Shown: piece by piece, positions 4,865-31,181 of the stretch
Layout of the letters: each line of letters begins with the position of its first letter
Numbering within the stretch: position 1 is the first letter of the stretch
Assembly: GCF_000341395.1 (NCBI RefSeq)
Contig: NC_020304.1
Span: forward strand, 120,001 to 152,000
Length of the DNA stretch: 32,000 bases
Reading direction: 5' to 3'
Origin: Desulfocapsa sulfexigens DSM 10523
Lineage (GTDB): Bacteria > Desulfobacterota > Desulfobulbia > Desulfobulbales > Desulfocapsaceae
Translations under genes and position numbers: made by a program
The notes under the pieces: model-generated
Databases searched by the model: none
Told to the model about the DNA's origin: nothing
What the model saw: only the letters and a program-made list of their open reading frames with translations

Positions 4865-4940
4865 GGCGGCGTAGCCAAGCGGCTAAGGCACTGGTCTGCA
4901 AAACCATGATTCAGCGGTTCAAATCCGCTCGCCGCCTCCA
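4865..4940 (+). tRNA. tRNA-Cys (anticodon GCA), with encoded CCA
   Basis: Manual cloverleaf fold. The acceptor stem GGCGGCG (4865-4871) pairs with CGCCGCC (4930-4936). The anticodon stem/loop is CTGGT-CTGCAAA-ACCAT, with U33 and GCA at 4898-4900. The T arm is AGCGG-TTCAAAT-CCGCT. The discriminator is U (4937) and CCA is at 4938-4940. Total length is 76 nt. Confidence 0.9.
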
Positions 4941-5874: not shown

Positions 5875-6846
5875 ATGGCAAGCAACGACATTCACATTCC
5901 TGAACACTGTGAACACGAGACTCATACCACTGGTGCTCTCCACGACAAACTCCCACCAGTGGTGGAAACGCTGGTCGCTGCCTGGCAGACCGAGGACTGC
6001 TTTGATCATGTGGGGCCGGTTCCCATCCCCTCACACACCTCGATTATTAATATTATCTACCAGGTACGACAGATATTGTTTCCGGGCTATTTCACCAAGA
6101 CCAAAATCCATGGCTCCAATCTGGAATATTATCTCGGCAAGGAGACCACGGAGCTCTACGAACGATTATCCAGGGAGATCATCATGGCCATCCGCCATGA
6201 CTGCAGGCGTTCCAACCTCCCCTGTACCCATTGTGAAGAAAGAGGGCATCGCATGGCCCTCTCCTTTATTGAAAGCCTGCCAGGAATTTCAGCCCTGCTC
6301 TCCACCGATATTCGGGCAACACTTGCAGGAGACCCGGCAACAGCCAGTACGGATGAAGTTATCTTCTGTTACCCCGGCCTGCTTGCCACCTCCATCTTCA
6401 GAATGGCCCATGAGTTGTACCTCCTTGAAGTACCAATTATTCCCCGGATTATGACTGAACATGCCCACAGCCTCACGGGTATCGATATCCATCCGGGGGC
6501 AACCATTGGTCCCGGATTTTTCATTGACCATGGAACTGGCGTTGTTATTGGAGAGACAACTATCATTGGCTCAAATGTCAGGATCTATCAGGGCGTCACT
6601 CTGGGAGCTCTCTCGCTTCCAAAGGATGCAGGACGGGTGATGCGGGACGTTAAGCGCCATCCGACCATTGAAGATGACGTTATTATTTACGCCAACACCA
6701 CTATCCTTGGCGGGGACACAACCATTGGCGCCAGAACAGTTATCGGTGGAAACATCTGGCTCACCGAATCCGTTCCTTCGGACACCAGAGTTATACTCAA
6801 ACGACCAGAACTCCTCTATTCAGGAAGAAAGGGTGGAACATCATGA
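5875..6846 (+). CDS. cysE: Serine O-acetyltransferase (long-form)
   Basis: 323 aa. The left-handed beta-helix hexapeptide region [41 protein letters not shown]...[19 protein letters not shown] is characteristic of serine acetyltransferase. The stop overlaps the cysK start (ATGA). Confidence 0.9.
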
Positions 6847-7760
6847 GCCTGTCACTGACCGATACCACAGGAAATACCCCACTTATATCACTGTCCAAAA
6901 TCTCTGCTCACTGCTGTGCCCGTATTCTTGCAAAACAGGAATCCCGGAATCCCATGGGCAGCGTCAAGGATCGTATTGCACTTGCCATGATTGAAGCGGG
7001 GATACGGGGCGGGAAGATTACAGAAGGTACCACCGTCATCGAGGCAACTTCAGGAAATACCGGATTGGGGCTGGCCTTTGTCTGCGCAGAAAGAAATCTG
7101 CCATTGATTCTCACCATGCCGGAATCCATGTCGCTTGAACGAAGAGCTCTTCTCAAACATCTGGGAGCTCAGCTGGTTCTCACTCCTGCCGCAGAGGGAA
7201 TGAAAGGGGCCATCGCAGCTGCAGAAGAACTTCATCGGAAAACCCGGAACAGTTTTATGGTCAGACAGTTTGAAAATCCTGCCAACCCAGCCATTCACAA
7301 AAAAACCACTGCTGAGGAAATATGGCAGGCGACGGATGGCATAATCGATATTTTCGTAGCGGGAGTCGGAACCGGTGGAACCATAACGGGAGTGCTCGAG
7401 GGATTAAAAGAAAAGAATCCAGAGATTATTGGAGTGGCAGTGGAACCTGCTGACTCCCCAGTACTTTCAGGAGGAAGCCCTGGCCCCCATAAGATCCAGG
7501 GGATCGGAGCCGGCTTTATCCCTGCAATCCTGAAAACTGAGCTAATTGACCAGATCATTACAGTTACAAACGACGATGCCCTGGAAACCGCCAGAAAGCT
7601 TGCAAAACAGGAGGGGCTGCTGGTCGGAATCTCCTCGGGTGCAGCCATGTGGGCAGCGCTGCAACTGGCAAGAGATGAAAGAAACAAGAGTAAAACAATA
7701 GTCACTGTTCTGCCGGATACAGGAGAGCGGTATTTAAGTACCGACCTGATGATAAAGTAA
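6843..7760 (+). CDS. cysK: Cysteine synthase A (O-acetylserine sulfhydrylase)
   Basis: 305 aa. The PLP-lysine motif is NPMGSVKDR. Other family motifs are [16 protein letters not shown] and GISSGAA. Confidence 0.94.
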
Positions 7761-7931: not shown

Positions 7932-9236
7932 ATGCACACACAGGCAGACATTATTAATTTCTGGAGCCACATTCCAGACCTTTCAGACTCGCTTACTGAC
8001 GAAGATGAGGAACCTCCTGACGGTAGAATAAAAACCCTCGACGCAGACGCCTGTCTGCTCAAAATTCCCCCCCCAGCCACTCTTTTTTCTCTACCTTCAG
8101 AAGCATCATCAGTAAGTCCTTCTCAAAGAAACACATTTCGAAAAACCTTTTACCCAGGTGTTACAGCAAAACAGTGGAACAGCTGGCATTGGCAGGTTGC
8201 CAACCGTATCCGTCGTGGAGACCAGCTTGGGCGTTTTTTACAGCTTTCCAAAGACGAAGAACTGGCTGTCAATGGAACGGGAACTACTCTTCCGCTTTCC
8301 ATTACTCCATATTACCTGAGTCTTCTTAACCCTACAGATCCAGAGCATCCACTCCGCCGTTCCGTTGTTCCCACAACAGGTGAATTAACCCAGGGACCCG
8401 GTGAGGCTGACGATCCTCTTGGAGAAGACAACCAGAGTCCTGTGCCGGGTCTTGTTCACCGCTATCCTGACCGTGTTCTTTTTCTGGTACATGATTTTTG
8501 CTCAACCTATTGCCGTTACTGTACGAGATCGCGTGTTGTCGGGCATGGTACCATAAATCCGACAACAGCCAGATTCGAACGAATGCTTGACTACATTCGT
8601 CGTACAAAAACGATCCGTGACGTCCTTATTTCAGGTGGCGACCCACTGTTGCTGTCCGATGATCGCCTTGAATGGCTGTTGAGCAGTCTGCGTAAAATCC
8701 CTCACGTAGAGGTTATTCGCATCGGAACCAAGGTTCCTGCAGTGCTTCCGCAGCGTATCACCCCCGCACTGGTGAAAATGCTTCGCCGCTATCATCCTCT
8801 CTATATGAGCCTGCATTTCATCCATCCAGACGAATGCACTCCGGAAACCACCAAAGCTTGTGCACGCCTTGCAGGGGCAGGGATTCCACTCGGTTCGCAG
8901 ACCGTTCTCCTGCGCGGTATCAACGACACGGCGGAAACGATGAAGAGCTTAATGCACGGGGTGATGAAGATGCGGGTCCGTCCATACTATCTCTATCAGT
9001 GCGACCCCATCACCGGATCGGCTCATTTCAGGACATCGGTAAAGAAAGGACTGGATATCATCCAGGGATTAAGGGGTTTTACCAGTGGTTATGCCATTCC
9101 AACTTATGTCATTGATGCCCCTGGCGGAGGAGGAAAAATCCCCCTTCTACCGGATTCGGTTATAGGGAAAGAGGGCAGTGATCTCCTGCTGCGTAACTAC
9201 GAAGAGAGATGCTTCCGTTATCCCGATGTTGTCTGA
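7932..9236 (+). CDS. kamA: KamA-family radical SAM aminomutase, predicted lysine 2,3-aminomutase (forms beta-lysine)
   Basis: 434 aa, with a strong RBS (GGAG, then 7 nt, then ATG). The radical SAM cluster CSTYCRYCTRS is at 8499-8522. KamA hallmark blocks are WHWQVANRI, ITPYYLSL, SPVPGLVHRYPDRVLFLV, VRPYYLYQCD and YVIDAPGGGGK (the PLP lysine codon is 9135-9137). Confidence 0.9.
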   Translation: MHTQADIINFWSHIPDLSDSLTDEDEEPPDGRIKTLDADACLLKIPPPATLFSLPSEASSVSPSQRNTFRKTFYPGVTAKQWNSWHWQVANRIRRGDQLGRFLQLSKDEELAVNGTGTTLPLSITPYYLSLLNPTDPEHPLRRSVVPTTGELTQGPGEADDPLGEDNQSPVPGLVHRYPDRVLFLVHDFCSTYCRYCTRSRVVGHGTINPTTARFERMLDYIRRTKTIRDVLISGGDPLLLSDDRLEWLLSSLRKIPHVEVIRIGTKVPAVLPQRITPALVKMLRRYHPLYMSLHFIHPDECTPETTKACARLAGAGIPLGSQTVLLRGINDTAETMKSLMHGVMKMRVRPYYLYQCDPITGSAHFRTSVKKGLDIIQGLRGFTSGYAIPTYVIDAPGGGGKIPLLPDSVIGKEGSDLLLRNYEERCFRYPDVV

Positions 9237-11319: not shown

Positions 11320-13578
11320 ATGTTACGCGTACGCCGCATCTACGATGATGCACTGCCAGTCAACAAAGAGGAACTGCGTCAGGTAAAGGAAATCCTGCGT
11401 TCCAGATTCAGTGTTACCGATGAAAAGGAGATTGAATCCATAGGAGAAAAACTGCGAAATCCTTTCAAACAGCGATTCCGTACCATTCTCTTTGTGGCCG
11501 AAAGTGTGAAGGAGCGTGTGGATGGTTTTGCAATCCTGCTCCATGAACCCTTACTCTCGTTCACCTATCTTGACTGGATTGCCATAACGGCCAAGCGTGC
11601 AAGCTCGGGTATTGGCAGTGTGCTCTACGAACGGGTACGGCAGGAATCTGCGGCCCTGAAGGTGAAAGGTCTTTTCTTTGAATGTTTACCGGATTCTGAA
11701 ACCTTCTGTTCTGAACCGGAAATACTTCAGGAAAATAGTGCCAGACTCCGTTTTTATGAACAATACGGTGCCCGTCCCATCGTCAATACGGCCTACGAAA
11801 CCCCCATCAACCCGGATGACAGTTGTGCCCCGTTCCTGGTTTATGACGGTCTCGAGAACAAAAAACCACCCTCAAAGACCTTTGTCCGTAAGGCTGTGCG
11901 TGCTGTACTGGAACGAAAATACAGTGATATATGCTCGCCCGAGTATGTGGATACCGTTGTTTCCTCATTCAATGATGACCCGGTGCAACTTCGTCCATTT
12001 CTCTATGTGAAACCCGAAGTTGCCAGCAACACAGTGGAAAGCAGAAGTACAGAACAGATTGCTGTAGTGGTGAATGACCGTCACGACATTCACCACATCA
12101 ATGACAAGGGATACGTGGAGTCTCCGGTACGTGTCCGGTCAATCCTCAAGGAACTGGACAAAAGTGGATTATTTGTCCAGATAAAACCACGCCACTATGC
12201 CAACCATCATCTCCATCCGGTACACACTTCGGATCTGGTTGGATATCTGAAAAATGCCTGTGCAGACATGCCGGAGGGCAAGTCCCTCTATCCTTACATC
12301 TTCCCCATCCGCAATAAGATGCGACCGCCAAAGGAAAAATCTGTACTTGCCGGATATTACTGTATCGACACGTTCACGCCCATTAACAGAAATGCCTATC
12401 CCGCTGCCCGTCGAGCGGTTGACTGTGCCCTGACTGCAGCAGATGAAGTGCTTAATGGACGAAGAATAGCCTACGCTCTGGTCAGACCTCCAGGCCATCA
12501 CGCTGAAAGTGGCGCTTTTGGAGGATTCTGCTATTTCAACAACAGTGCAGTCGCCGCCCACTACCTGAGCGGATATGGCAGAACCGTAGTGCTTGACATC
12601 GACTATCATCACGGCAACGGTACCCAGGAGATTTTTTACCGCCGCGATGATGTTCTGACCATCTCCATCCACGGTCATCCAAGCTTCGCCTATCCCTATT
12701 TCAGTGGATTTGAAGAAGAAAAAGGTGAAGGCGAAGGCGAGGGTTTCAATCTCAACATCCCCCTTCCTGAATCGGTGGATGGGGTAAAATATCGCAGGGC
12801 GTTGCAGAAAGTTCTGGAAAGGGTCGAGGCTTTTAATCCAGCCTTTCTTGTCGTGGCCTTAGGCCTTGATCCTGCCAAAGGCGACCCGACAGGTACCTGG
12901 AGTCTGCTGGCAAAAGATTTTCAGGAAAACGGTAAAATGATAGGAGCTCTTGGGTTGCCGACCATCGTTATCCAGGAGGGCGGATACAAAACGCGAACCC
13001 TTGGTATCAACGCCATGCGGTTTTTCAAGGGTCTCAGCCTTGCCATTCAGCGATGGGCCGATTCACGCCATCCGGTGAAAAGCAAAATTCAAGGCATTGC
13101 CTACAGATACGAAGTCGAGGAGGCTGATCTGGAACGAGTAGCCAAACTTGCTTCCAGAACAGGCTTCTTCTCTGCGGAGGAAGTGGATGTAGCTGTGGAA
13201 CTGGTGCAGGAGAGACTGGAAAAAGGAGACGCCAGTGGCTATAATTTCATCATAGCAGAACATTACGGTCGCCTTGTCTCCTACACCTGTTATGGCGCAA
13301 TCCCCTGCACCCAGAGCGGACATGATCTCTACTGGATCGTTGTACATCCCGATTATCAGGGAAGAGGCGTTGGTAAAAGCATCCTCAAGGAAACCGAACA
13401 TGCCATCAGAAGTGGCGGCGGCGAGCGGATATACGCAGACACATCCCAACGACTGCAGTACGCCAGCACACGTGCCTTTTACGAAAACAACGGTTACCTC
13501 CAGGTGAGCCTGTTACCCGACTTCTATGGTCCCGATGATGGCAAGGTAGTCTACTGCAAAAATCTGCTGAAACAATAG
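11320..13578 (+). CDS. Tri-domain fusion: GNAT-like domain / HDAC-family (arginase-deacetylase fold) amidohydrolase / GNAT acetyltransferase
   Basis: 752 aa, with an AAAGGAG RBS. The middle domain carries the full HDAC/acetylpolyamine-amidohydrolase catalytic set: RPPGHHA, LDIDYHHGNGTQ, GEGEGEGFNLNIPLP, VVALGLDPAKGDP and IQEGGY. The C-terminal domain has the canonical GNAT motif A, IVVHPDYQGRGVGKSIL...FYENNGY. The N-terminal ~230 aa have a weaker GNAT-like motif (WIAITAKRASSGIGSVLYERV). Confidence 0.88.
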   Translation: MLRVRRIYDDALPVNKEELRQVKEILRSRFSVTDEKEIESIGEKLRNPFKQRFRTILFVAESVKERVDGFAILLHEPLLSFTYLDWIAITAKRASSGIGSVLYERVRQESAALKVKGLFFECLPDSETFCSEPEILQENSARLRFYEQYGARPIVNTAYETPINPDDSCAPFLVYDGLENKKPPSKTFVRKAVRAVLERKYSDICSPEYVDTVVSSFNDDPVQLRPFLYVKPEVASNTVESRSTEQIAVVVNDRHDIHHINDKGYVESPVRVRSILKELDKSGLFVQIKPRHYANHHLHPVHTSDLVGYLKNACADMPEGKSLYPYIFPIRNKMRPPKEKSVLAGYYCIDTFTPINRNAYPAARRAVDCALTAADEVLNGRRIAYALVRPPGHHAESGAFGGFCYFNNSAVAAHYLSGYGRTVVLDIDYHHGNGTQEIFYRRDDVLTISIHGHPSFAYPYFSGFEEEKGEGEGEGFNLNIPLPESVDGVKYRRALQKVLERVEAFNPAFLVVALGLDPAKGDPTGTWSLLAKDFQENGKMIGALGLPTIVIQEGGYKTRTLGINAMRFFKGLSLAIQRWADSRHPVKSKIQGIAYRYEVEEADLERVAKLASRTGFFSAEEVDVAVELVQERLEKGDASGYNFIIAEHYGRLVSYTCYGAIPCTQSGHDLYWIVVHPDYQGRGVGKSILKETEHAIRSGGGERIYADTSQRLQYASTRAFYENNGYLQVSLLPDFYGPDDGKVVYCKNLLKQ

Positions 13579-13756
13579 GCGAAGGGGATATGGTTGTCCC
13601 CAGGCTACCATACCTCCTGACCATATAATTATTGCCAGTGTTTTTTGAATCAGGTAGGGTCATGTCAGGTAAACATGTATTTTCATGGAGTTTCAATCCG
13701 TTGTAAGGATACCTGTACTCAATCCTTCTTCAACTCTCAACACGAGGAAAAGTCTG

Positions 13757-15187
13757 ATGGAAACATTCAGGACATATGACCCTGAGGATTATTACGACGA
13801 ATTAATCGACGACACCGGCAAACCCCGGCCTGGGGTTCAGTTACTGGTGGATAAGATTGAATCACTACCCGAAGGTGACCTGGCCATGCGCCAGAGAGAA
13901 GCGGAGGCCCTGCTCCTCAAAATGGGCATCACCTTCAATGTCTACGGCCGCGATGAGGGCACGGAAAAGATATTTCCCTTTGATATTATTCCCCGCATTG
14001 TTTCCGGCAGCGACTGGCAGCAGATAGAGAACGGCCTGAAACAGCGGATCTTTGCCCTGAATGAATTCCTCCAGGACATTTACAACGGCAAAAAGATCCT
14101 GAAGGATAAAATAATCCCTGAAGATCTTATACTCAGCAGCCGCACCTATCGCAAAGAATGTGAGGGCTTCACCCCTCCCCGCGGCATATGGTGCCATGTA
14201 ACGGGTACGGATCTGGTACGAGGCCGCAACGGAGAATTCTACGTACTGGAAGACAATCTCCGCTGCCCCTCGGGCGTCTCCTATGTCCTTGAAAACCGCC
14301 AGGTACTAAAACGGACATTCCCCCAGGTGTTTGAAGCCTCTCATGTGCGACCGGTGGACGACTATCCCACCAAACTCCTCGATATGCTTGAGTACCTGGC
14401 TCCAGACCACGTGCAATCACCCACCATTGGTGTTCTGACTCCCGGCATCTATAACAGCGCCTATTTCGAGCACTCTTTTCTCTCCCAGCAGATGGGAATA
14501 GAACTAGTGGAAGGCCGGGATCTTGTTGTCTCAGATGGATTTGTCCATATGTTGACCACCAAAGGCCTCAAACGTGTTGATGTCCTTTATCGTCGCATCG
14601 ATGATGATTTCATCGACCCGGATGTCTTTCGTCCCGATTCCATGCTTGGTGTCAAGGGGCTCATTGAAGTCTATAAAGCTGGTCGTATCGCCATGGCCAA
14701 TGCACCCGGAACTGGTATTGCCGACGACAAGGTGATTTACGCCTTCGTCCCCGAGATCATCAAGTATTACACAGGTGAGGATCCGATCCTGGCCAGTGTG
14801 CCCACCTATATCTGCGGCAACGATAAAGACCGCTCCTATGTTCTGGAACACCTCGATGAGCTGGTGGTCAAGGCCGCCAACGAGTCCGGTGGCTACGGCA
14901 TGCTGGTTGGCCCCCATTCAACCAGGGCAGAGCAGGCTGAGTTCGCCAAAAAAATAGTGGCCGAACCCCGTAACTACATGGCCCAACCCACCATTTCACT
15001 CTCCCGGGTACCTACCATTGTTGGCGACCGCATCGAAGGTCGCCATGTTGATCTGCGCCCCTATGTGTTGTACGGAGAGGAAATTTATGTACAGCCCGGT
15101 GGCCTTACCCGGGTGGCTCTTACCAAAGGGTCTCTGGTTGTCAACTCCTCCCAGGGTGGTGGAAGCAAAGACACCTGGGTACTGTAG
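13757..15187 (+). CDS. Circularly permuted ATP-grasp protein (COG2308-type), apparently catalytically intact
   Basis: The ORF track starts it at 13685 with no RBS. An in-frame ATG at 13757 (METFRTYDPEDYYDELID...) is preceded by GAGGAAAAG and gives a 476-aa protein. Family-typical blocks are YVLEDNLRCPSGVSYVLENR, VLTPGIYNSAYFEHSFL, VVKAANESGGYGMLVGP and LVVNSSQGGGSKDTWVL. Confidence 0.87.
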   Translation: METFRTYDPEDYYDELIDDTGKPRPGVQLLVDKIESLPEGDLAMRQREAEALLLKMGITFNVYGRDEGTEKIFPFDIIPRIVSGSDWQQIENGLKQRIFALNEFLQDIYNGKKILKDKIIPEDLILSSRTYRKECEGFTPPRGIWCHVTGTDLVRGRNGEFYVLEDNLRCPSGVSYVLENRQVLKRTFPQVFEASHVRPVDDYPTKLLDMLEYLAPDHVQSPTIGVLTPGIYNSAYFEHSFLSQQMGIELVEGRDLVVSDGFVHMLTTKGLKRVDVLYRRIDDDFIDPDVFRPDSMLGVKGLIEVYKAGRIAMANAPGTGIADDKVIYAFVPEIIKYYTGEDPILASVPTYICGNDKDRSYVLEHLDELVVKAANESGGYGMLVGPHSTRAEQAEFAKKIVAEPRNYMAQPTISLSRVPTIVGDRIEGRHVDLRPYVLYGEEIYVQPGGLTRVALTKGSLVVNSSQGGGSKDTWVL

Positions 15188-15213
15188 ACGATTTATATAG
15201 AGGAGAAATAAAG

Positions 15214-16212
15214 ATGCTTAGCCGTGTAGCCAACTCAATTTACTGGATGTGTCGATATATCGAACGGGCGGAAAATGTAGCCCGCTTTATCAGTGTCAAC
15301 CTCAACCTGTTACTCGATATGCCCTCAGAAAAGGGCAAACACTGGGAACCGCTGGTACTGACAACAGGTGATCAGGAACTGTTCGAAAAAAAGTATCAGA
15401 ACTATACCAAAGAGGCGGTAATCGAATTCCTTGCCTTTGACCGGAGTTACCCCAATTCCATTATCAGCTCCCTTGCGGGAGCAAGGGAAAACGGTCGGTC
15501 CATCCGTGAAATCATCTCTTCTGAAATGTGGGAACATTTAAACAATTTCTATCTGGAACTGACCGATGTAAAAAGCCAGACCATGGCTCTTGAGGATCCG
15601 CACCGCTTTTTCAAAATCATTCAGATGCGCAGTCACCTGTTCACCGGACTGCTGGACTCGACCATGAGCCATGGGGAAGCCTGGAACTTTGCCCGCATCG
15701 GTATGATGCTGGAACGGGCAGACAAAACCTCCAGAATCCTTGACGTCAAATACTTTATGCTGTTGCCGCACCCGGATCTGGTGAACAGTCCGATAGATAA
15801 CATTCAGTGGACATCGGTGCTCAAATCTGCCAGTGCTTTTGAAATGTATCGTAAGGAACATCATCGGATAACCCCGCATAAGGTGGCAAGCTTCCTGATT
15901 TTTGACAGCCAGTTTCCTCGTTCCATCCGCCATTGTATTTCCAAGGCCGATATCTGTCTGCATAGGATTGCCGGCTCACCGGAGGGGTCCGCAAGCAATC
16001 TTGCCGAGAAAAAGCTGGGCCGTCTCAAAGCTGATCTTGAATACACTGACATTGATGAAGTGGTCAAATCTGGTATGCATGAGTACCTGGACGATCTGCA
16101 GAGTCGGATCAACCAGATTGATGAAGTCATCGGAACCACATTCTTCAATCTCAGGCCCCTGATCGATGTATCAACAAACGACCAGCAGCAGTCCACGACC
16201 ACCAACAACTGA
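15214..16212 (+). CDS. Alpha-E domain protein (COG2307-type)
   Basis: 332 aa, with an AGGAG RBS. The N-terminus MLSRVANSIYWMCRYIERAENVARF is the hallmark opening of alpha-E domain proteins. The rest appears all-helical, including GEAWNFARIGMMLERADKTSRILDVKY. Confidence 0.87.
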   Translation: MLSRVANSIYWMCRYIERAENVARFISVNLNLLLDMPSEKGKHWEPLVLTTGDQELFEKKYQNYTKEAVIEFLAFDRSYPNSIISSLAGARENGRSIREIISSEMWEHLNNFYLELTDVKSQTMALEDPHRFFKIIQMRSHLFTGLLDSTMSHGEAWNFARIGMMLERADKTSRILDVKYFMLLPHPDLVNSPIDNIQWTSVLKSASAFEMYRKEHHRITPHKVASFLIFDSQFPRSIRHCISKADICLHRIAGSPEGSASNLAEKKLGRLKADLEYTDIDEVVKSGMHEYLDDLQSRINQIDEVIGTTFFNLRPLIDVSTNDQQQSTTTNN

Positions 16213-16290
16213 ATGAAAAAGTAATCAATAAACATGGGGCCGCGATATACCCGGCAACCATGCTCTTGATTCACAATAAAAGGAATACTC

Positions 16291-19200
16291 ATGGGAATCC
16301 ATGTTGCCCTGAACCACAAGACCTCATACCATTACGACAAGCGTATCACCCTCTCTCCTCAGATTGTCCGTCTGCGCCCCGCTCCTCACTGCCGGACCCC
16401 CATTCTGAGCTACTCCATGACGGTAACTCCTGAAAAACATTTTATCAACTGGCAGCAGGATCCATTCAGTAACTACCTGGGCCGCCTGGTATTTCCCGAC
16501 AAAACAGACATTTTTGAGGTGGAGATCGATCTGGTGGCGGAGATGATTATCATCAACCCCTTTGATTATTTCCTGGAGCCTGACGCCGAATCATTTCCCT
16601 TTATTTATGAACCGGCTCTCAAACTGGACCTTGCTCCCTATCTGGCCAGAGAAAAGGCTGGGAAAAAGCTCCAGGAGTACATAAACAAGATAGAGCTCAA
16701 ACCAAGACAGACCATCGATTTCCTGGTGGATCTGAACATGAAGCTGAGTCATGATATCAGCTATCTTATCCGCATGGAACCGAACGTGCAAAGCTGTGAA
16801 AAGACCCTCACTCTTGGCAGCGGCTCATGCAGGGATTCTGCCTGGTTGCTGGTCAATATCCTGCGTCATCTCGGTCTGGCTGCCCGTTTCGTTTCCGGTT
16901 ACCTGATCCAGTTGAAACAGGATATCAAATCCCTGGACGGTCCATCGGGAACAGAAGTTGACTTCACCGATCTCCATGCCTGGACAGAGGTTTACATTCC
17001 AGGGGCTGGTTGGGTGGGTATGGATCCAACCTCCGGACTTTTCGCCGGAGAAGGACACATTCCCCTGGCCTGCTCGCCTGAACCACAGAGTGCAGCTCCC
17101 ATCACCGGAGGCCTCGAATTATGTGAAGTTGACTTCAGTCACACCATGAGTGTGACAAGAATTCACGAAGCACCCCGCTCCACCCGCCCCTACCCCGAAG
17201 AAGTCTGGAGAGAGATCGTTGAATTGGGAGAACAGGTTGATCAGAAACTGACCGATGGCGATGTCCGTCTGACCATGGGAGGGGAACCCACATTTGTTTC
17301 AATCGACGATATGGATGGCGCTCAATGGAACACCGACGCCCTTGGAGAAGAAAAACTGGAGCTTTCCGGAATTCTCATTAAGGAACTGCGAAAGAAATGG
17401 GCTCCCGGAGGATTTCTCCATCATGGCCAGGGCAAATGGTATCCGGGAGAGCCCCTGCCCCGCTGGGCCATGGGCTGCTATTGGCGAAAAGACGGTAAAC
17501 CTGTCTGGAAGGATGACCAGTGGCTGGCCGATGCCTCCAAAGATTATGGTTTTGATGCTGGAGATGCCAAACTTTTCATCGAGACACTGGCAGACAATCT
17601 GAGGGTGAGTCAGCGCTATATACGGGAAAGTTACGAAGACATCTTCTATTACCTGTACAAAGAGCAACGGTTGCCGGTAAATGTGGATCCTGCAGATCCA
17701 AAGCTTGACAGTGCTCTGGAACGCGCTCATATGGTACGAGCCTTTCAGCGAGGACTGGGATCAGTGGTCGGCTACGTCCTCCCTCTGCAGCATGGCTCCT
17801 GGAAGAGTGGCCCCTGGCCTTTCCGCGATGGACGGATGTTCCTTGTACCCGGTGATTCTCCTGCCGGCCTGCGCCTCCCCCTGGCCTCTCTGCCATGGGT
17901 AGCCAAAGAGGACATCCAGGAGGGGCACCCCCTGGATCCAATGATAGACAGAGAGCCCTTACCCGAACTGCATGAAAATCAGAAAGTTGTGGAAGGACAG
18001 GCTGTAGCAGTGACAGGTGACAATGTTCATATTCAGCCTGAACCCTATGCTGACCCGGAGCCCGTCAAGGGAGAATCTGCTGCCTGGCTGGTACGCACAG
18101 CCCTCTGCGTGCAGCCCCGGGAAGGACGCCTCTATATATTTATGCCACCGGTGGAATCTCTGGAGGGATACCTTGAGCTGGTGTCCATCGTCGAAGCAAC
18201 TGCCGCACAGACTCAGTTGCCGGTAATCATCGAAGGATATACACCGCCCTTTGACCCGCGCCTCCAGAATCTGAAAATCACCCCGGATCCCGGAGTCATT
18301 GAAGTGAATATCCAGCCCATGCACAGCTGGCAGGAGCTGGTTGAATGTACCACCACCCTTTACGACACTGCCCGAGAGGCACGTCTGGGTACTGAAAAGT
18401 TCATGATTGACGGCCGACACACCGGCACCGGTGGTGGTAATCATATCGTCATCGGTGGATCCACCCCTGGAGACAGCCCGTTTCTACGAAGGCCGGATCT
18501 GCTTCGCAGTTTTGTCACCTTCTGGAATAATCATCCGTCCCTCTCTTTTCTTTTTTCCGGACTCTTTATCGGCCCCACCAGCCAGCAGCCGCGAATTGAT
18601 GAGGCCCGCCATGACAGCCTCTATGAACTGGAAATCGCCTTTGCTGAACTGGACAGACAGACAGGTTCGGATCAGCCCTGCCCTCCCTGGCTGGTGGATC
18701 GAATTTTCCGCCACCTGCTGGTGGACGTTACCGGTAACACCCACCGGGCCGAATTCTGTATCGATAAGCTCTATTCACCGGACAGTGCTAGCGGAAGACT
18801 GGGCCTCCTTGAATTTCGCGCCTTTGAGATGCCTCCCCACGCCCGTATGAGCCTCGCCCAGCAGCTGCTGTTGCGTAGCTTTGTTGCCTGGTTCTGGGAG
18901 ACGCCCTATCGTCAGAGTCTGGTGCACTGGGGAACACGGCTCCATGATCGCTTTATGCTGCCCCAGCCGGTACGGGATGATTTTGCTGATGTCCTGAATA
19001 TTCTGAACCGGGCTGGCTTCCCTGTCTCGATGGATTTTTTCCATCCTCATTTCGAATTTCGCTTTCCCATTTACGGCAAAGTAACGGTTCAGGGCATGGA
19101 GATTGAACTGCGCCAGGCTCTTGAGCCCTGGCACGTATTGGGCGAAGAACCAGGCGGTGGTGGCACTGTCCGCTACGTTGACGGCTCACTGGAGAGGCTC

Positions 19201-19611
19201 CAGGTCAAAGTCTCCGGTATGACAGGAGAACGCTATATTATCACCTGCAACGGTCGTCGAGTTCCTCTGCAGCCAACCACAGTTGAAGGCGTATTTGTTG
19301 CCGGTATCCGCTTCCGTGCCGGAAAACCTCCATCCTGCCTCCATCCTACCATTGATGTTCATGCTCCCCTCACCATTGATCTCTTCGACACCTGGTCCAA
19401 CAGGTCCGTGGGTGGCTGTACCTATCATGTGGAGCACCCAGGCGGACGAAACTCTGAAACACTTTCTGTCAACTCCTATGAGGCGGAAGGACGGCGTAAC
19501 GCTCGTTTCGTTCCCAACCGGCACAGTCCCGTTCGCCCGACAGCTATTCCTGCAGATGAAATGAACCCATCTTTTCCATATACTCTTGATTTGCGCCGCC
19601 ACATCGGATAA
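16291..19611 (+). CDS. Large transglutaminase-like cysteine peptidase fused to a DUF2126-type predicted (circularly permuted COOH-NH2 ligase) amidoligase domain
   Basis: 1106 aa. The N-terminal Bact_transglu_N-like region reads HVALNHKTSYHYDKRITLSPQIVRLRP. The transglutaminase core has an intact Cys-His-Asp triad (GSGSCRDSAWLLV, FTDLHAWTEVYIPGAGWVGMDPTSG). The ~800-aa C-terminal extension matches my recollection of the COG4196/DUF2126 family. Confidence 0.88.
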   Translation: MGIHVALNHKTSYHYDKRITLSPQIVRLRPAPHCRTPILSYSMTVTPEKHFINWQQDPFSNYLGRLVFPDKTDIFEVEIDLVAEMIIINPFDYFLEPDAESFPFIYEPALKLDLAPYLAREKAGKKLQEYINKIELKPRQTIDFLVDLNMKLSHDISYLIRMEPNVQSCEKTLTLGSGSCRDSAWLLVNILRHLGLAARFVSGYLIQLKQDIKSLDGPSGTEVDFTDLHAWTEVYIPGAGWVGMDPTSGLFAGEGHIPLACSPEPQSAAPITGGLELCEVDFSHTMSVTRIHEAPRSTRPYPEEVWREIVELGEQVDQKLTDGDVRLTMGGEPTFVSIDDMDGAQWNTDALGEEKLELSGILIKELRKKWAPGGFLHHGQGKWYPGEPLPRWAMGCYWRKDGKPVWKDDQWLADASKDYGFDAGDAKLFIETLADNLRVSQRYIRESYEDIFYYLYKEQRLPVNVDPADPKLDSALERAHMVRAFQRGLGSVVGYVLPLQHGSWKSGPWPFRDGRMFLVPGDSPAGLRLPLASLPWVAKEDIQEGHPLDPMIDREPLPELHENQKVVEGQAVAVTGDNVHIQPEPYADPEPVKGESAAWLVRTALCVQPREGRLYIFMPPVESLEGYLELVSIVEATAAQTQLPVIIEGYTPPFDPRLQNLKITPDPGVIEVNIQPMHSWQELVECTTTLYDTAREARLGTEKFMIDGRHTGTGGGNHIVIGGSTPGDSPFLRRPDLLRSFVTFWNNHPSLSFLFSGLFIGPTSQQPRIDEARHDSLYELEIAFAELDRQTGSDQPCPPWLVDRIFRHLLVDVTGNTHRAEFCIDKLYSPDSASGRLGLLEFRAFEMPPHARMSLAQQLLLRSFVAWFWETPYRQSLVHWGTRLHDRFMLPQPVRDDFADVLNILNRAGFPVSMDFFHPHFEFRFPIYGKVTVQGMEIELRQALEPWHVLGEEPGGGGTVRYVDGSLERLQVKVSGMTGERYIITCNGRRVPLQPTTVEGVFVAGIRFRAGKPPSCLHPTIDVHAPLTIDLFDTWSNRSVGGCTYHVEHPGGRNSETLSVNSYEAEGRRNARFVPNRHSPVRPTAIPADEMNPSFPYTLDLRRHIG

Positions 19612-19669
19612 CTATGCCAGATCAAACAAGGTGTACTACTATTAAAGAAACAACGAGACCTCCAGCTGT

Positions 19670-22198
19670 ATGAGCACTGCAGACCTGAATAATCCCGCGT
19701 GCCCATGGCCTGCTGCATCTGTGTCCCTGTTTGACGCGGTTACGCTGCCACCTCAGGCCTATTGCGAAGCCTTTTCCTCCCCGGCAAGTGCCCGTGAACA
19801 CTGGCGCCCCCTGCTCTCCGCATTAGATGCCAGGGGAAAACAGGAGCTCTCCCAACTCCAGGATCGCGTCAAACGCAAGTGCCACGAACATGGTGCAACC
19901 TTCAACCCTTTTGACGACCCCACCGAGCAGGAAACCCCCTGGGCTCTGGATATAATCCCGCTTCCCTTTGCCGCAGAGGAATGGGCAAATCTCGAAACAG
20001 GACTTATCCAACGGGCCCGCCTCCTGGATCAGATCCTCGCAGACACCTACGGGGCACAAAACCTGTTGAAGAATGGACAGATGCCAGCCGAACTGGTCTT
20101 TGCCAATCCGCATTTCCTGCACCAGTGTCATGGTATTCGTCCGGCCGCTGGCAAGTTCCTGACCTATTACGCGGCAGACCTTTACAGAGGAGTCGACGGA
20201 TGCTTCCGGGTGCTGCGAGATTACGGTGCAAACCCCATCGGACTCGGTTATGCCCTTGAGAACAGGATCGTCAGTTCACATTTTCTTTCAGACACCTATC
20301 ACAACAATCAGATCCACAGGCTGGCTCCCTTCTTCCAAACCTTTCACCGCAATCTTATCCAACGTGCCGCCCTGCACCGTGAAGATCACGGTATCGTGCT
20401 GCTCTCTCCCGGCCCAGACAGTCTCATCTACTTTGAGCATGCCCTGCTCTCACGTTACCTTGGGTACCCTCTGGTGGAAGGCCAGGATCTGACCATGCGG
20501 AACGGAAAGCTGTTTCTCAAAAAACTGGACGGCCTCGAGGAGGTGGAAGCCATCTTCCGCCACACCGGAGACAACAACAGCGATCCCTTCGCCCTACGGC
20601 GTAAATCAGCAGACGGTGTGGCAGGACTTATCCAGGTTTCCCGTGAGAATAACGTCGATATCGTCAACCCCATCGGCAGTGGATTTATTGATACACCCGT
20701 TCTTCCTGTCTTTCTGCCCAATTTTTGTCGTGAACTACTGAAAGAAGAGCTACTCCTGAAAAGTCATCCTGCCTGGTGGTGTGGGACCCCGGATGGGCGC
20801 AATCATGTTATGGCAAATATGAACACCTTGAATGTCACTTCTGCCATGACCCGATCGACAACTGCTACACGTCCGAGCGACCTGATGAATAATATTGCCG
20901 CCAGCCCCCACGCCTTTATGGCACAGGAACAGGTTTATCCTTCAATGGTTCCCGTCTGGGACAACGGCCGTGTCAATTCCCATTACTCTCTTTTACGGGT
21001 ATTTGCCTGTGCAACGGATCAGGGATTTGCTTTCATGCCTGGAGGGCTGGCCATCACCGCCGCGAATGTAAAGACACTCACCAGTGACCGCCCGGAGCGA
21101 CAGCAAAGCAAGGACGTCTGGGTGTTGTCTGACAAACCGGTTGAGCCTGTGAGCCTTATGAGCAGTCTCCAACAGGTGAGTGAGTTCAGTCGCAGCAGTA
21201 ATCTTCCGAGCCGGGTGGCTGATCATCTGCTCTGGCTGGGACGCTATCTGGAGCGGGCCGAAGGGCTGACACGACTTCTTCTCTCCGTCTTTCGCCGGCT
21301 CTCAGGAGAATTTTCCCCACAAGATATCCCCGAATTACCGTTTCTCCTTAATCTTCTCCGTGAAAAAGATATCATTCCCAAGGCTCCCACTGACAGCAGC
21401 GGTATCCCTCTCTATCGTGAACTCCTCGCCCAACTGAATGGTGCCATGTATCAAAGCGATAAGAATCAGAGTGTTGCCACGGTTCTGAAACAGGTGCAGA
21501 AGGCAGCTCGGCATGTACGGGATCGCCTCTCTCCTGATTCCTGGCGGGTAATCAACAGACTGGAGACCTTTCCGCTGAATTCAGGCAGTGATCCTCTGGA
21601 AGTTCTTGATGACACCCTGTTCAATCTGAGCGCCTTCAGCGGACTGGCTATGGAAAGTATGACCCGTGGGCTGGGATGGCGCTTCATGGACATAGGCCGT
21701 CGCCTGGAACGGGCCATGAATCAGGCCTCCCTTGTACGCATCGGCCTCCCTCAGGTATGCAGAGCATCGGGAACTGCCCTGGAAGCGATGCTTGAGGTGT
21801 CAGACAGTATTATGACATACCGGGCGCGCTACCAGATGGCCTTTCAACTGGCTCCCGTACTGGATTTACTGCTCATGGATGAAACCAATCCTAAATCCCT
21901 GGCTTTTCAGTTCAGCCAGCTGGCTGCACACGTGGAGCATCTTCCCCGGCAGAGCGAACGCAGCTTTTCCAGTCCGGAGGAGCGCATTGTCCTTGAAATA
22001 CTAACCACCGTACGTCTGCTCGATCTCACGGGGATGCTCTGCACAACAAAAGAGAGTAAAAAAAGTTCACTTGCAGCATCTCTTGAATCCATGGAGACCC
22101 TTCTTAAGGAGTTTGCTCAGCAGGTCAGCGCTCACTACCTGAGCCGGGTTCCGACCACCCCCCATTTCTCCATCATACCCGGCAACCGTAAGCCATGA
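19670..22198 (+). CDS. Fusion of a circularly permuted ATP-grasp-like domain (nucleotide-binding motifs degenerate) and an alpha-E domain
   Basis: 842 aa. The N-terminal half is co-linear with the 13757 gene (LDIIPLPF.., RVLRDYGANPIGLGYALENR, LLSPGPDSLIYFEHALL, QSKDVWVL). The C-terminal half starts with the alpha-E hallmark SRVADHLLWLGRYLERAEGLTRLL. The stop overlaps the next start (ATGA at 22195-22198). Confidence 0.87.
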   Translation: MSTADLNNPACPWPAASVSLFDAVTLPPQAYCEAFSSPASAREHWRPLLSALDARGKQELSQLQDRVKRKCHEHGATFNPFDDPTEQETPWALDIIPLPFAAEEWANLETGLIQRARLLDQILADTYGAQNLLKNGQMPAELVFANPHFLHQCHGIRPAAGKFLTYYAADLYRGVDGCFRVLRDYGANPIGLGYALENRIVSSHFLSDTYHNNQIHRLAPFFQTFHRNLIQRAALHREDHGIVLLSPGPDSLIYFEHALLSRYLGYPLVEGQDLTMRNGKLFLKKLDGLEEVEAIFRHTGDNNSDPFALRRKSADGVAGLIQVSRENNVDIVNPIGSGFIDTPVLPVFLPNFCRELLKEELLLKSHPAWWCGTPDGRNHVMANMNTLNVTSAMTRSTTATRPSDLMNNIAASPHAFMAQEQVYPSMVPVWDNGRVNSHYSLLRVFACATDQGFAFMPGGLAITAANVKTLTSDRPERQQSKDVWVLSDKPVEPVSLMSSLQQVSEFSRSSNLPSRVADHLLWLGRYLERAEGLTRLLLSVFRRLSGEFSPQDIPELPFLLNLLREKDIIPKAPTDSSGIPLYRELLAQLNGAMYQSDKNQSVATVLKQVQKAARHVRDRLSPDSWRVINRLETFPLNSGSDPLEVLDDTLFNLSAFSGLAMESMTRGLGWRFMDIGRRLERAMNQASLVRIGLPQVCRASGTALEAMLEVSDSIMTYRARYQMAFQLAPVLDLLLMDETNPKSLAFQFSQLAAHVEHLPRQSERSFSSPEERIVLEILTTVRLLDLTGMLCTTKESKKSSLAASLESMETLLKEFAQQVSAHYLSRVPTTPHFSIIPGNRKP

Positions 22199-23067
22199 GA
22201 TACCGCGTAAGCCATAAAACAACCTACCGCTATTCGGAACCTGCCTCCCTTTCTCAAAACGAGGTATTTCTCCATCCCCGTGAAATTGAAACTCAACGGG
22301 TAATCGAAAGCAGACTGGCCATCGATCCAAAACCGCAATACCAGCACCGTCGTACAGATTACTTTGGCAATATCGCGCAGGTATTCATGGTACAGCATCC
22401 CCACAACGAGCTGACCATGACCGCAACCAGCATTGTGGAAACAGCCCTTCCCGTCACGCCATTAAGCACTCCTCCCTGGGAAAGCGTCGTCCAGCGACTG
22501 GCTGCCCCCGTGCGCCAGTTACCGGACCTTGAAGCCTACCAGTTCGTCTTTGCCAGCCCTCTGATCAGCGTCGCTCCCGGGGTTATGGAATATGCCAGGC
22601 CTTCCTTCCCGCCGGGTACTCCCGTACTGGACGGAGCCATGAACCTGATGGGACGAATATTTAAAGAATTCAGCTACGACACCTCGGCCACCACCGTGGA
22701 TACCACCGTAGAACAACTGCTGGCAGAACGAAAAGGGGTCTGTCAGGATTTTGCCCATTTCGCCATCAGCTGTCTACGATCCATGGGACTGGCGGCACGC
22801 TATGTGAGCGGCTACCTGGAAACCATGCCACCACCGGGTAAACCCAAGATGATCGGAGCCGATGAATCCCACGCCTGGCTCTCTCTCTACATTCCGGACA
22901 CAGGCTGGGTAGACCTGGACCCCACGAACAACATTATTCCAGGTGAAAATCATATCGTTCTTGCCTGGGGGCGGGATTATGGTGATGTCACCCCCGTGAA
23001 AGGAGTGGTAATGGGGGGCGGAATTCACACCCTTTCCCTGATGGTGGATGTTGCCGTACACTCCTGA
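22195..23067 (+). CDS. Transglutaminase-like cysteine peptidase (COG1305-type)
   Basis: 290 aa. The Bact_transglu_N-like start is MRYRVSHKTTYRYSEPASLSQNEVFLHPRE. The catalytic triad context is KGVCQDFAHFAISCLRSMGLAARYVSGY and ESHAWLSLYIPDTGWVDLDPTN. Confidence 0.9.
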   Translation: MRYRVSHKTTYRYSEPASLSQNEVFLHPREIETQRVIESRLAIDPKPQYQHRRTDYFGNIAQVFMVQHPHNELTMTATSIVETALPVTPLSTPPWESVVQRLAAPVRQLPDLEAYQFVFASPLISVAPGVMEYARPSFPPGTPVLDGAMNLMGRIFKEFSYDTSATTVDTTVEQLLAERKGVCQDFAHFAISCLRSMGLAARYVSGYLETMPPPGKPKMIGADESHAWLSLYIPDTGWVDLDPTNNIIPGENHIVLAWGRDYGDVTPVKGVVMGGGIHTLSLMVDVAVHS

Positions 23068-28088: not shown

Positions 28089-28637
28089 TTACAGGAACCA
28101 CGGAACAAACATCCTGCTCCGTTTCATATATGCCCTGTAGGAGGAGCCAAAAAAACGAATATTCTCCTGCTCCTCCACCCTTGCAGCAAGAAAAAGGAAG
28201 GCGCTCACGCCCAAAACCAGTCCCAAGGTTAAGGGCGTAGTATTTTTCAGACATGCCCCCCACCCGAGAAACAGCAGAGAGCTGTACATGGGATGCCGAA
28301 TATACCGATAGAGACCCGTATCAACCACATTGACCGTGTTCTCAAAAGCGTGATTTTCAGGAGTGCCTGGCCGATCCCCGTGGCCACCCCGTTTTTTCAA
28401 CATAATCAGGGCCTGGACAATAAAAGAGATTGAAACCGCCAGCAACAGCCAGGACAGGATATGAAGAGGTGAGCTTGGATCTACAAACCAATAGGGATGA
28501 TTCAACAGAACAAGAACCAGATTCCCTTCAAAGACAAAGAACCTGTAGAAACCGTGCGTTTTGGGATTGAGCAGAGAACGTCTGGAAACGTAAAGAAAGA
28601 AAAGAGTGCCGACAGTAAACAGAATAATTCGGGTCAT
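28089..28637 (-). CDS. Integral-membrane methyltransferase family protein (ICMT/PEMT-like)
   Basis: 182 aa with 4-5 hydrophobic helices. The C-terminal block VVDTGLYRYIRHPMYSSLLFLGWG...RVEEQENIRFFGSSYRAYMKR is typical of the isoprenylcysteine carboxyl methyltransferase / phospholipid methyltransferase family. Confidence 0.82.
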   Translation of the reverse strand: MTRIILFTVGTLFFLYVSRRSLLNPKTHGFYRFFVFEGNLVLVLLNHPYWFVDPSSPLHILSWLLLAVSISFIVQALIMLKKRGGHGDRPGTPENHAFENTVNVVDTGLYRYIRHPMYSSLLFLGWGACLKNTTPLTLGLVLGVSAFLFLAARVEEQENIRFFGSSYRAYMKRSRMFVPWFL

Positions 28638-28647
28638 AACACCTCGC

Positions 28648-31166: not shown

Positions 31167-31181
31167 ATCATTCTTTTATAT

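Follow-up and report, generated by a model that had tools for sequence, protein, structure and literature searches.

A predicted GNAT–deacetylase–GNAT enzyme and its conserved gene cassette in Desulfocapsa sulfexigens

Desulfocapsa sulfexigens DSM 10523 is a marine sulfur-disproportionating bacterium, available as a cultured isolate, with a finished genome of 3.99 Mb. We analysed a stretch of 32,000 nucleotides of this genome (contig NC_020304.1, positions 120,001 to 152,000 of the forward strand; hereafter the window), in which one open reading frame (ORF) of 752 codons encodes an N-terminal GCN5-related N-acetyltransferase (GNAT) domain, a central zinc deacetylase domain of the acetylpolyamine amidohydrolase (APAH) type and a C-terminal GNAT domain. 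The gene, here called the fusion gene, is the last of four; it is preceded in order by kamA, which encodes a putative lysine 2,3-aminomutase, and by the genes of two putative ATP-grasp amide ligases, A and B (Table 1). An earlier note, made from the letters of this DNA alone, had described the ORF as a single polypeptide that carries opposing acetyltransferase and deacetylase activities. In this study, we describe the domains of the fusion protein, which is predicted from its sequence and its structural model to be a genuine three-domain enzyme, and the gene set in which it is found. Its parts come from well-known superfamilies; the combined architecture is real, widespread, uncharacterised and located in a conserved pathway.

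Table 1. Features of the window; positions count from its first nucleotide and residue numbers refer to the fusion protein (N-GNAT and C-GNAT, its N- and C-terminal GNAT domains)
Feature	Position	Strand	Support or identity
GNAT–APAH-type deacetylase–GNAT ORF, 752 aa	11320..13578	+	D. sulfexigens AGF76696.1
N-GNAT, core about residues 1-165 plus family-specific extension (about 80 aa) to about residue 245	11320..12054	+	Profile-profile comparison, Pfam in relatives, AF2, Foldseek
N-GNAT acetyl-CoA loop RASSGIGSVLY	11596-11628	+
N-GNAT motif B NSARLRFYEQYG	11734-11769	+
Zinc deacetylase domain, APAH ('cluster 4') type	12055..13044	+	Pfam, PDB sequence matches, Foldseek
RPPGHH, residues 389-394	12484-12501	+
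DIDYHH, residues 426-431	12595-12612	+
GLD, residues 515-517	12862-12870	+
PTG at the place of the APAH 'PIS' gatekeeper, residues 523-525	12886-12894	+
EGGY, residues 553-556	12976-12987	+
Low-confidence linker before C-GNAT	13045-13095	+
C-GNAT, residues 593-752	13096..13575	+	Pfam Acetyltransf_7 2.9e-17, Acetyltransf_1 1.2e-13
C-GNAT acetyl-CoA loop QGRGVG, residues 680-685	13357-13374	+
C-GNAT motif B TRAFYENNG	13468-13494	+
KamA-family radical-SAM/pyridoxal phosphate (PLP) lysine 2,3-aminomutase, 434 aa, first cassette gene	7932..9236	+	Pfam Radical_SAM and LAM_C
Ddl-like ATP-grasp amide ligase A, 328 aa	9321..10307	+	Pfam Dala_Dala_lig_C 6e-23
Ddl-like ATP-grasp amide ligase B, 333 aa	10304..11305	+	Pfam Dala_Dala_lig_C 1.5e-18
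tRNA-Cys (GCA), just upstream of cysE/cysK, followed by a TPR protein	4865-4940	+
cysE-like serine acetyltransferase (323 aa, long N-terminal extension, below the cysE cutoff) and cysK (cysteine synthase A, above cutoff), 4-nt overlap	5875-7760	+
CP_ATPgrasp_2 (500 aa), Alpha-E (332 aa), 1106-aa Bact_transglu_N + Transglut_core + DUF2126 'putative amidoligase', 842-aa CP_ATPgrasp + Alpha-E fusion, 290-aa transglutaminase-like protein	13685-23067	+
Two adjacent paralogous hybrid sensor histidine kinases, 873 and 717 aa, dCache/PAS-HisKA-HATPase-receiver	23124-27898	-
PEMT-like methyltransferase, flavin amine-oxidase-like oxidoreductase (495 aa), radical-SAM/SPASM protein (344 aa), radical-SAM protein at the window edge	28089-31991	-

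The fusion gene and the domains of its product

The ORF begins with an ATG that is preceded by a Shine-Dalgarno-like GGAG and reads through 752 codons without an internal stop. Since M1, R3, I4 and R5 of the protein are kept among its homologues in the alignment, the start codon is correct. The protein is 100% identical to AGF76696.1 (WP_015402395.1), which is annotated as a single gene in D. sulfexigens DSM 10523, and the three proteins encoded upstream are exact matches to AGF76693-AGF76695. The single polypeptide described by the earlier note is therefore real. Public annotation of this protein is generic, either 'GNAT family N-acetyltransferase' or 'deacetylase, histone deacetylase/acetoin utilization protein'.

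The earlier note had also allowed that a hidden frameshift might join two or three separate genes. Frameshift and mis-assembly are ruled out by the finished genome, the perfect match to one annotated gene and the conservation of the ORF across phyla. We counted the architecture in 80 related loci from species-representative genomes. N-GNAT and deacetylase share one ORF at every one of these loci (80/80). C-GNAT belongs to the same ORF at 60 of them, is encoded by a separate gene directly downstream at 10 and directly upstream at 5, and was not detected at the remaining 5. This pattern of fused or adjacent C-GNAT over 80 loci excludes a sequencing artefact. What stays constant is the pairing of N-GNAT with the deacetylase, whereas C-GNAT acts as a functional partner for which fusion is optional and which travels with the ligases.

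At least 569 related stretches are present in a collection of 185,579 species genomes. Their distribution is wide but patchy and resembles that expected of horizontal gene transfer (HGT). Carriers include Desulfobacterota (many families), Planctomycetota, Dehalococcoidales, Anaerolineae, Acidobacteriota, Calditrichia and others, as well as the alphaproteobacterial Ruegeria, Leisingera, Roseovarius, Rhodovulum, Methyloceanibacter, Filomicrobium and Kiloniellaceae. The fusion had been called unusual. This holds insofar as no study of it was found in the literature, but it is not rare, as thousands of database sequences carry it under generic annotations only. Full-text literature and the classification of bacterial deacylases (PMC11532494) yielded nothing on a fusion of GNAT with a histone deacetylase (HDAC)-type domain or on a cassette of KamA, ATP-grasp enzymes and deacetylase; the neighbourhood survey of Iyer et al. 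2009 lay outside this coverage.

A Pfam scan of the whole protein assigned Hist_deacetyl to residues 266-568 (E 1.5e-76) and several GNAT models to residues of about 630-729 (best 2.9e-17), and gave no match for residues 1-250. The AlphaFold model of the full-length protein has a pLDDT of 85.9 and a pTM of 0.66. For the central domain the PF00850 score is 258 bits at a cutoff of 27.9. The earlier note had credited this domain with every catalytic element of an HDAC-type deacetylase, the His-His pair, the Asp-x-His ligands, a third Asp and the Tyr, and all of them are there: H393, H394, D426, D428, H430, D517 and Y556 are invariant in 50 homologues down to 43% identity. Each motif that it had quoted, including the QGRGVG loop of the C-terminal domain, lies where it had been placed.

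Among solved structures, the best sequence matches of the deacetylase are APAHs, those of Marinobacter subterrani (6phr, E 1e-74) and Pseudomonas sp. (9gkz, 8e-74); bacterial HdaH/AcuC-like chains match much more weakly (about 1e-38). The top 16 Foldseek matches of the full-length model are all APAHs (TM-score 0.84-0.91). Two of the motifs, RPPGHH and EGGY, are the acetyl-preferring motifs of cluster-4 deacylases (Graf et al. 2024, PMC11532494). The PIS gatekeeper of this cluster, however, aligns to P523-T524-G525, of which P523 and G525 are invariant and T524 is present in at least 90% of the family. HDAC10 has PEG and the first catalytic domain of HDAC6 (HDAC6-CD1) has PKG at this place. The region of the L2 polyamine-specificity loop aligns with only about 4 residues fewer than in APAH, and R331, the equivalent of R95 of APAH, is invariant; D163, its partner in an inter-subunit salt bridge, aligns to G398, with the invariant E396 nearby. 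Judged from these alignments, PTG is a family-specific change at a specificity-determining position, and the deacetylase is APAH-like in fold and predicted chemistry and differs exactly where specificity is set.

Of the two flanking domains, the earlier note had recognised a canonical acetyl-CoA motif in the C-terminal one and a weaker GNAT-like motif in the N-terminal one, and profile searches support the GNAT fold of both. C-GNAT exceeds the Pfam cutoffs clearly (PF13508 63 bits, cutoff 27; PF00583 52 bits, cutoff 20.7). Its closest solved relative is PDB 2r7h (DDE_3044, a stand-alone GNAT of a Desulfovibrio; E 2e-34). The loop and the Tyr of motif B are conserved: in 31 sequences G683, G685 and Y721 are invariant, and Q680 is kept in at least 90%.

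The N-terminal domain of the window protein, scanned alone, reaches 21.4 bits with PF13508 (E 3.4e-4), which is below the gathering score of 27. When members of its family were scanned singly, 26 of 27 matched PF00583 (best 1.8e-07), and many relatives of 580 aa that have no C-terminal GNAT carry precomputed GNAT Pfam matches. A profile of 53 N-domains aligned with the C-GNAT profile in hhalign with a probability of 96.6% (E 4.7e-10), and the alignment spans the β4-α3 acetyl-CoA loop as well as the 'FYE..G' motif B. AlphaFold modelled residues 1-250 with a pLDDT of 87.9 and a pTM of 0.88. With this model Foldseek returned 534 PDB matches at E <= 0.001, and the top 50 listed are all GNAT-fold acetyltransferases, among them GCN5/PCAF, DDE_3044 (2r7h), AAC(6'), SpeG and PaiA at a target TM-score of about 0.75-0.8. 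G97, Y103, E121, D125, N139, E147 and Y159 are invariant in the homologue alignments. In the loop, G95 is kept in at least 90% of the homologues (S95 in the window copy) and G99 is the family consensus; Y146 is conserved. By these residues, N-GNAT looks catalytically competent. A likeness to streptothricin/nourseothricin acetyltransferases (E 0.03-0.46) is too weak to serve as evidence for N-acetylation of β-lysine. Searching 1.84 billion proteins with residues 1-255 gave 422 representatives at E <= 0.001, which makes the N-domain a small distinct family. Its complete members are about 575-600 aa long (N-domain plus deacetylase), about 750 aa, or about 220-270 aa and apparently stand-alone.

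The cassette and the rest of the window

The reading frames of ligases A and B share 4 nt, and a gap of 14 nt separates the latter from the fusion gene; by this spacing both ligases are translationally coupled to the fusion gene. Genes for KamA and both ligases lie directly upstream of the fusion gene on the same strand at 53 of the 65 loci for which at least 3.6 kb of upstream sequence is available, and these 53 span Desulfobacterota, Alphaproteobacteria, Planctomycetota, Dehalococcoidales and others. The set is also kept together when rearranged. Desulfuromonas sp. AOP6 has the same parts as separate genes, in the order core (N-GNAT plus deacetylase), ligase, ligase, GNAT, KamA-like and an extra stand-alone deacetylase, and on another contig a KamA-ligase-ligase-GNAT block is divergent from a gene for the two-domain core. 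At the 56 loci with at least 4.5 kb on each side, a C-type GNAT and ligases were both present at 46, the GNAT only at 5, a ligase only at 1 and neither at 4 (Fisher p = 0.0016). In the Desulfuromonas locus, the additional Hist_deacetyl protein (377 aa, 2e-79; L084:14102-15235) follows the KamA-like gene, whose product is short (361 aa).

KamA scores 475 bits with the NCBIfam model lys_2_3_AblA (TIGR03820), below its cutoff of 525. It matches the L-lysine 2,3-aminomutase of Clostridium (PDB 2a5h) at E 3e-136 and keeps the equivalents of D293 and D330. Both Asp residues, the CxxxCxxC motif and the PLP-binding Lys are invariant in all 45 cassette KamAs compared. In 2a5h, D293 and D330 are known to bind the ε-ammonium group of lysine, and they differ in glutamate 2,3-aminomutases. 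The conserved Asp pair rules out a glutamate or arginine 2,3-aminomutase, and since KamA keeps this lysine-type pair, β-lysine is the likely entry metabolite supplied by it.

The best PDB Ddl matches of ligases A and B have E values of 1e-19 and 7e-18, respectively, and the two are 26% identical to each other. Both keep the R-x-D and E-x-N motifs for Mg and acyl-phosphate. With 151 bits for ligase A and 116 bits for ligase B, neither reaches the NCBIfam Ddl cutoff of 243 bits. True D-Ala–D-Ala ligases, and with them a role in the cell wall, are not supported at scores so far below the Ddl cutoffs. Both ligases are divergent Ddl-like ATP-grasp enzymes, which should form amide bonds via an acyl-phosphate. 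The suggestion of the earlier note that kamA and the ligases point to an amine-rich substrate such as lysine or β-lysine has gained strength from the synteny at 53 of 65 loci, the survival of the set through rearrangement, the aspartates of KamA and the APAH type of the deacetylase. We read the cassette as two modules, a biosynthetic one (KamA, two ligases and C-GNAT) and an autonomous one for acetylation and deacetylation (N-GNAT–APAH).

The two-domain core also occurs alone. At five loci (L069, L071, L086, L090 and L091) no KamA, ligase or C-GNAT was found within 8-10 kb. One of these solitary genes (L090:5242-7095) stands beside a divergent gene for a 617-aa PLP-dependent decarboxylase, and another (L091:336-3410) adjoins a block of MarR, asparagine-synthase-like and CN-hydrolase genes; both are contexts of amine or amide metabolism.

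Clustering of all ORFs of the related loci revealed no further conserved partner such as a transporter, regulator or carrier peptide; it gave only shadow ORFs, ABC ATPases of a generic kind and a small Cys-rich ORF that occurs sporadically. The latter (160-210 aa, starting with CxxC...CC) lies upstream of ligase A at five loci (L003:179-661, L008:7371-7889, L018:7342-7926, L031:7399-8028 and L065:7396-7929). In the loci that have kamA it is placed between that gene and ligase A, and L065 showed no kamA; the window lacks this ORF. By its sequence it looks like a YkgJ-type metal-binding protein. At one of 91 loci (L088:5831-7969, + strand) a 712-aa fusion of a Ddl-like ATP-grasp domain (1.3e-28) with a DmpA/BapA-type Peptidase_S58 (2.3e-102) is encoded directly upstream of a two-domain core gene and would be another pair that makes and breaks a bond on one chain. 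Peptidase_S58 includes β-aminopeptidases, and this fusion hints at products with an N-terminal β-amino acid. No riboswitch or other RNA element was found upstream of kamA at Rfam gathering thresholds. Scans for promoters and terminators gave no more sites than expected by chance.

Directly downstream of the β-lysine cassette, the window holds a second, unrelated cluster of predicted amide-bond enzymes, a duplicated gene set. Its CP-ATP-grasp, Alpha-E and transglutaminase genes are ruled out as part of the cassette, as they co-occur with the fusion at 0 of the 80 loci. On the upstream side, tRNA-Cys, the cysE-like gene and cysK form a small cysteine-themed neighbourhood; cysE/cysK are likewise ruled out as cassette members, being found near the fusion at one other locus only and there on the opposite strand. 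The minus-strand run that ends at the window edge may be a separate modification cluster.

Proposed role and competing explanations

We propose, with a probability of roughly 50%, that the fusion protein is a tailoring enzyme of a conserved four-gene small-molecule pathway which starts from β-lysine, and that its opposing activities are separated by step or by position. For the details of the mechanism our confidence is lower than for this general statement. Because the deacetylase is of the APAH type and the neighbours are metabolic enzymes, the substrates would be small molecules rather than proteins, namely β-lysine and/or its polyamine-like amides made by the ligases. Acetylation and deacetylation would not constitute a futile cycle, as they would concern different steps or different nitrogens. 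A GNAT would begin by acetylating one amine of β-lysine; this masking enzyme is most likely C-GNAT, because C-GNAT co-occurs with the ligases. With that amine masked, the ligases could activate the carboxylate and make a defined amide bond, or two, while lactamisation and uncontrolled oligomerisation would be avoided. The always-fused pair of N-GNAT and deacetylase would then remove or re-position acetyl groups on the product, which would thereby be switched between a cationic form (free amine) and a neutral form (N-acetyl). To mask an amine with acetyl ahead of carboxyl activation is a common metabolic strategy, also found in the biosynthesis of arginine (N-acetylglutamate) and of ectoine (N-γ-acetyl-diaminobutyrate) and in the catabolism of β-lysine in Bacillus (N-ε-acetyl-β-lysine). 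Because no transporter or exporter is conserved beside the cassette, the product most likely stays inside the cell and might resemble, for example, a compatible solute or a polyamine. More tentatively, and with less confidence than we place in the pathway as such, the cassette could make undescribed β-lysine amides, either a di- or tripeptide with an N-acetyl-β-lysyl group or a pseudo-polyamine built on β-lysine. The fusion would then be the first characterised single-chain writer and eraser of acetyl groups on a small molecule, switching between neutral osmolyte-like and cationic polyamine-like forms in marine and sediment anaerobes, Roseobacter-group bacteria and Planctomycetes.

Several points weigh against the proposed role in the β-lysine pathway. 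From the sequences we infer the product and all substrates alike. The statistics of co-occurrence rest on few, phylogenetically non-independent negative cases. Characterised APAHs have PIS where this family has PTG, and the region of the L1 hairpin is about 7 residues shorter than in PsApaH; the predicted substrate class cannot simply be transferred from APAH. Two steps between which the ligations take place would gain no obvious channelling advantage from fusion, and the solitary N-GNAT–deacetylase cores point to a function that does not need β-lysine, which fits a self-contained toggle better than a protecting-group cycle. Such a toggle is the main rival: a GNAT domain and the deacetylase would act on the same amine of one small molecule, which might be N-acetyl-β-lysine, an amide of β-lysine or an ordinary polyamine. 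The two would be reciprocally regulated, like the activities of PFK-2/FBPase-2, SpoT or glutathionylspermidine synthetase/amidase, so that the level of acetyl-CoA or ionic conditions would decide how much of the molecule is acetylated (neutral, osmolyte-like) relative to the free, cationic form. It explains the invariant N-GNAT–APAH fusion, seen at all 80 loci and in hundreds of 580-aa proteins, and the solitary cores better than our preferred model, since a pair found without any cassette is what one expects of a self-sufficient writer and eraser. Both domains look catalytically intact, many carriers (D. sulfexigens included) belong to marine or saline lineages, and the known osmolyte chemistry of β-lysine is N-acetylation (by AblB; general knowledge). 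We nevertheless regard homeostatic switching as less likely than the pathway role. It leaves the conserved partnership with two ATP-grasp ligases and a second GNAT unexplained, no regulatory domain or ligand site was identified in the protein, the equivalog model of AblB is not matched, and the link to habitat is anecdotal.

Improbable, in our estimate, is a switch that acts on proteins, with the GNAT domain or domains and the deacetylase as a fused writer and eraser of acetyl-lysine, in the manner of AcuA/AcuC on acetyl-CoA synthetase; it might target KamA or the ligases, or else a protein that carries β-lysine, for instance a translation factor that has received β-lysine from the ATP-grasp enzymes. 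A precedent is the pair of a GNAT and an HDAC-type enzyme in the acu operon (PMC13121692). GCN5/PCAF protein acetyltransferases lead the fold matches of N-GNAT, but they match no better than the small-molecule GNATs AAC(6'), SpeG and 2r7h (E 1e-8 to 1e-6). Also in favour of a protein switch are the gatekeeper PTG, which is neither PIS nor PEG, and the protein-lysine deacetylase activity that characterised bacterial APAHs retain to some degree, on some peptides and on acetylated AcsA (PMC11532494); this activity also weighs against the small-molecule pathway. The deacetylase is, however, clearly nearest to the APAHs (E 1e-74 versus 1e-38 for HdaH/AcuC-like chains) and, in the alignment, keeps both the L2 polyamine-specificity loop region and R331. 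No gene for a target protein is conserved in the neighbourhood, and the patchy, HGT-like distribution (at least 569 stretches in 185,579 species genomes) is ill-suited to the modification of a core factor. Least probable of all appears a reading in which one or both GNAT domains are not acetyltransferases and there is no opposing chemistry, so that they would sense acetyl-CoA or CoA or bind substrate and thereby regulate the deacetylase, or act as Fem-like aminoacyl or peptidyl transferases. GNAT folds have indeed been reused as non-catalytic or aminoacyl-transfer modules (general knowledge), and N-GNAT of the window falls below the Pfam gathering threshold and carries an extension of about 80 residues. 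Yet the pyrophosphate-binding glycine loop and the motif-B Asn/Tyr, features of GNATs that use acetyl-CoA, are kept in both domains, invariant across phyla, and the strict conservation of the putative catalytic Glu/Tyr argues for catalysis.

If the proposed β-lysine pathway is true, an undescribed metabolite derived from β-lysine is made by at least several hundred species from many phyla, as at least 569 related stretches were found; many of the carriers are members of sulfur-cycling and marine groups of environmental importance. The pathway would join ATP-grasp amide ligation with acetyl masking and unmasking, and might yield a novel compatible solute or polyamine surrogate. The fusion would allow the first enzymological study of a GNAT joined to an HDAC-fold deacetylase and offer a compact natural model for the avoidance of futile acetyl cycling. 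To research on deacetylases, its gatekeeper PTG, invariant or nearly so, would add a new variant of specificity. The proposal is directly testable, as D. sulfexigens DSM 10523 is in culture and four genes of this small size lend themselves to heterologous reconstitution.

Comparison with known systems

By sequence as well as by fold, residues of about 246-575 match bacterial APAHs best (6phr, 9gkz, Mycoplana ramosa 3q9b and Burkholderia 3men). The domain shares with them the full set of zinc ligands, His and Tyr and the motifs RPPGHH and EGGY; in the alignment it also has the L2-loop region and the equivalent of R95 (R331). It differs in PTG for PIS, in the replacement of D163 by G398 and in the L1 region shorter by about 7 residues; moreover, the APAHs known so far stand alone, with a length of about 340 aa, whereas the domain described here is flanked by GNATs. 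In AcuA/AcuC a GNAT and a classical zinc deacetylase of opposing activity are encoded together (PMC13121692). The Acu proteins are, however, separate, AcuC belongs to another deacylase cluster and the target is a protein lysine, whereas the fusion has an APAH-like domain and small-molecule neighbours; neither acs nor another conserved target gene was found in the neighbourhood of the fusion gene, which thus does not resemble an AcuA/AcuC-type system in this respect.

A lysine 2,3-aminomutase coupled to a β-lysine GNAT is known from AblA/AblB of methanogens, which make the osmolyte N-ε-acetyl-β-lysine, and from yodT-yodP-kamA of Bacillus, and the cassette resembles both. Unlike AblA/AblB, it gave no AblB model among the NCBIfam matches at E <= 0.01, and its KamA remains below the AblA cutoff (475 bits, cutoff 525). 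Unlike the yod operon of Bacillus, it contains no aminotransferase, CoA-transferase or M20 deacetylase, and has two ATP-grasp ligases and an HDAC-fold deacetylase instead. The β-lysine route of Bacillus and Pseudomonas ends with a deacetylase, so that the addition and removal of acetyl in one pathway has a precedent. The synthesis of N-acetylglutaminylglutamine amide (NAGGN) by the bifunctional GNAT and ATP-grasp protein Ngg and the RimK-like synthetases of N-acetylaspartylglutamate (NAAG), which act on N-acetyl-aspartate, likewise pair N-acetylation with ATP-grasp ligation and yield a small intracellular N-acetylated peptide (general knowledge). The homology seen goes no further than the superfamily level. 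The ATP-grasp enzymes of the cassette belong to a different, Ddl-like subfamily, the predicted input is β-lysine, and those systems lack a deacetylase.

For an acetyltransferase and a zinc deacetylase paired in a single chain, the searchable literature gave no characterised case. Forward and reverse chemistry on a small molecule, carried by one chain, is known from glutathionylspermidine (Gsp) synthetase/amidase, PFK-2/FBPase-2, SpoT and GlnE, which have no sequence relationship to the fusion. Of these, Gsp synthetase/amidase joins an amide synthetase of the ATP-grasp type to an amidase, and both act on a conjugate of a polyamine.

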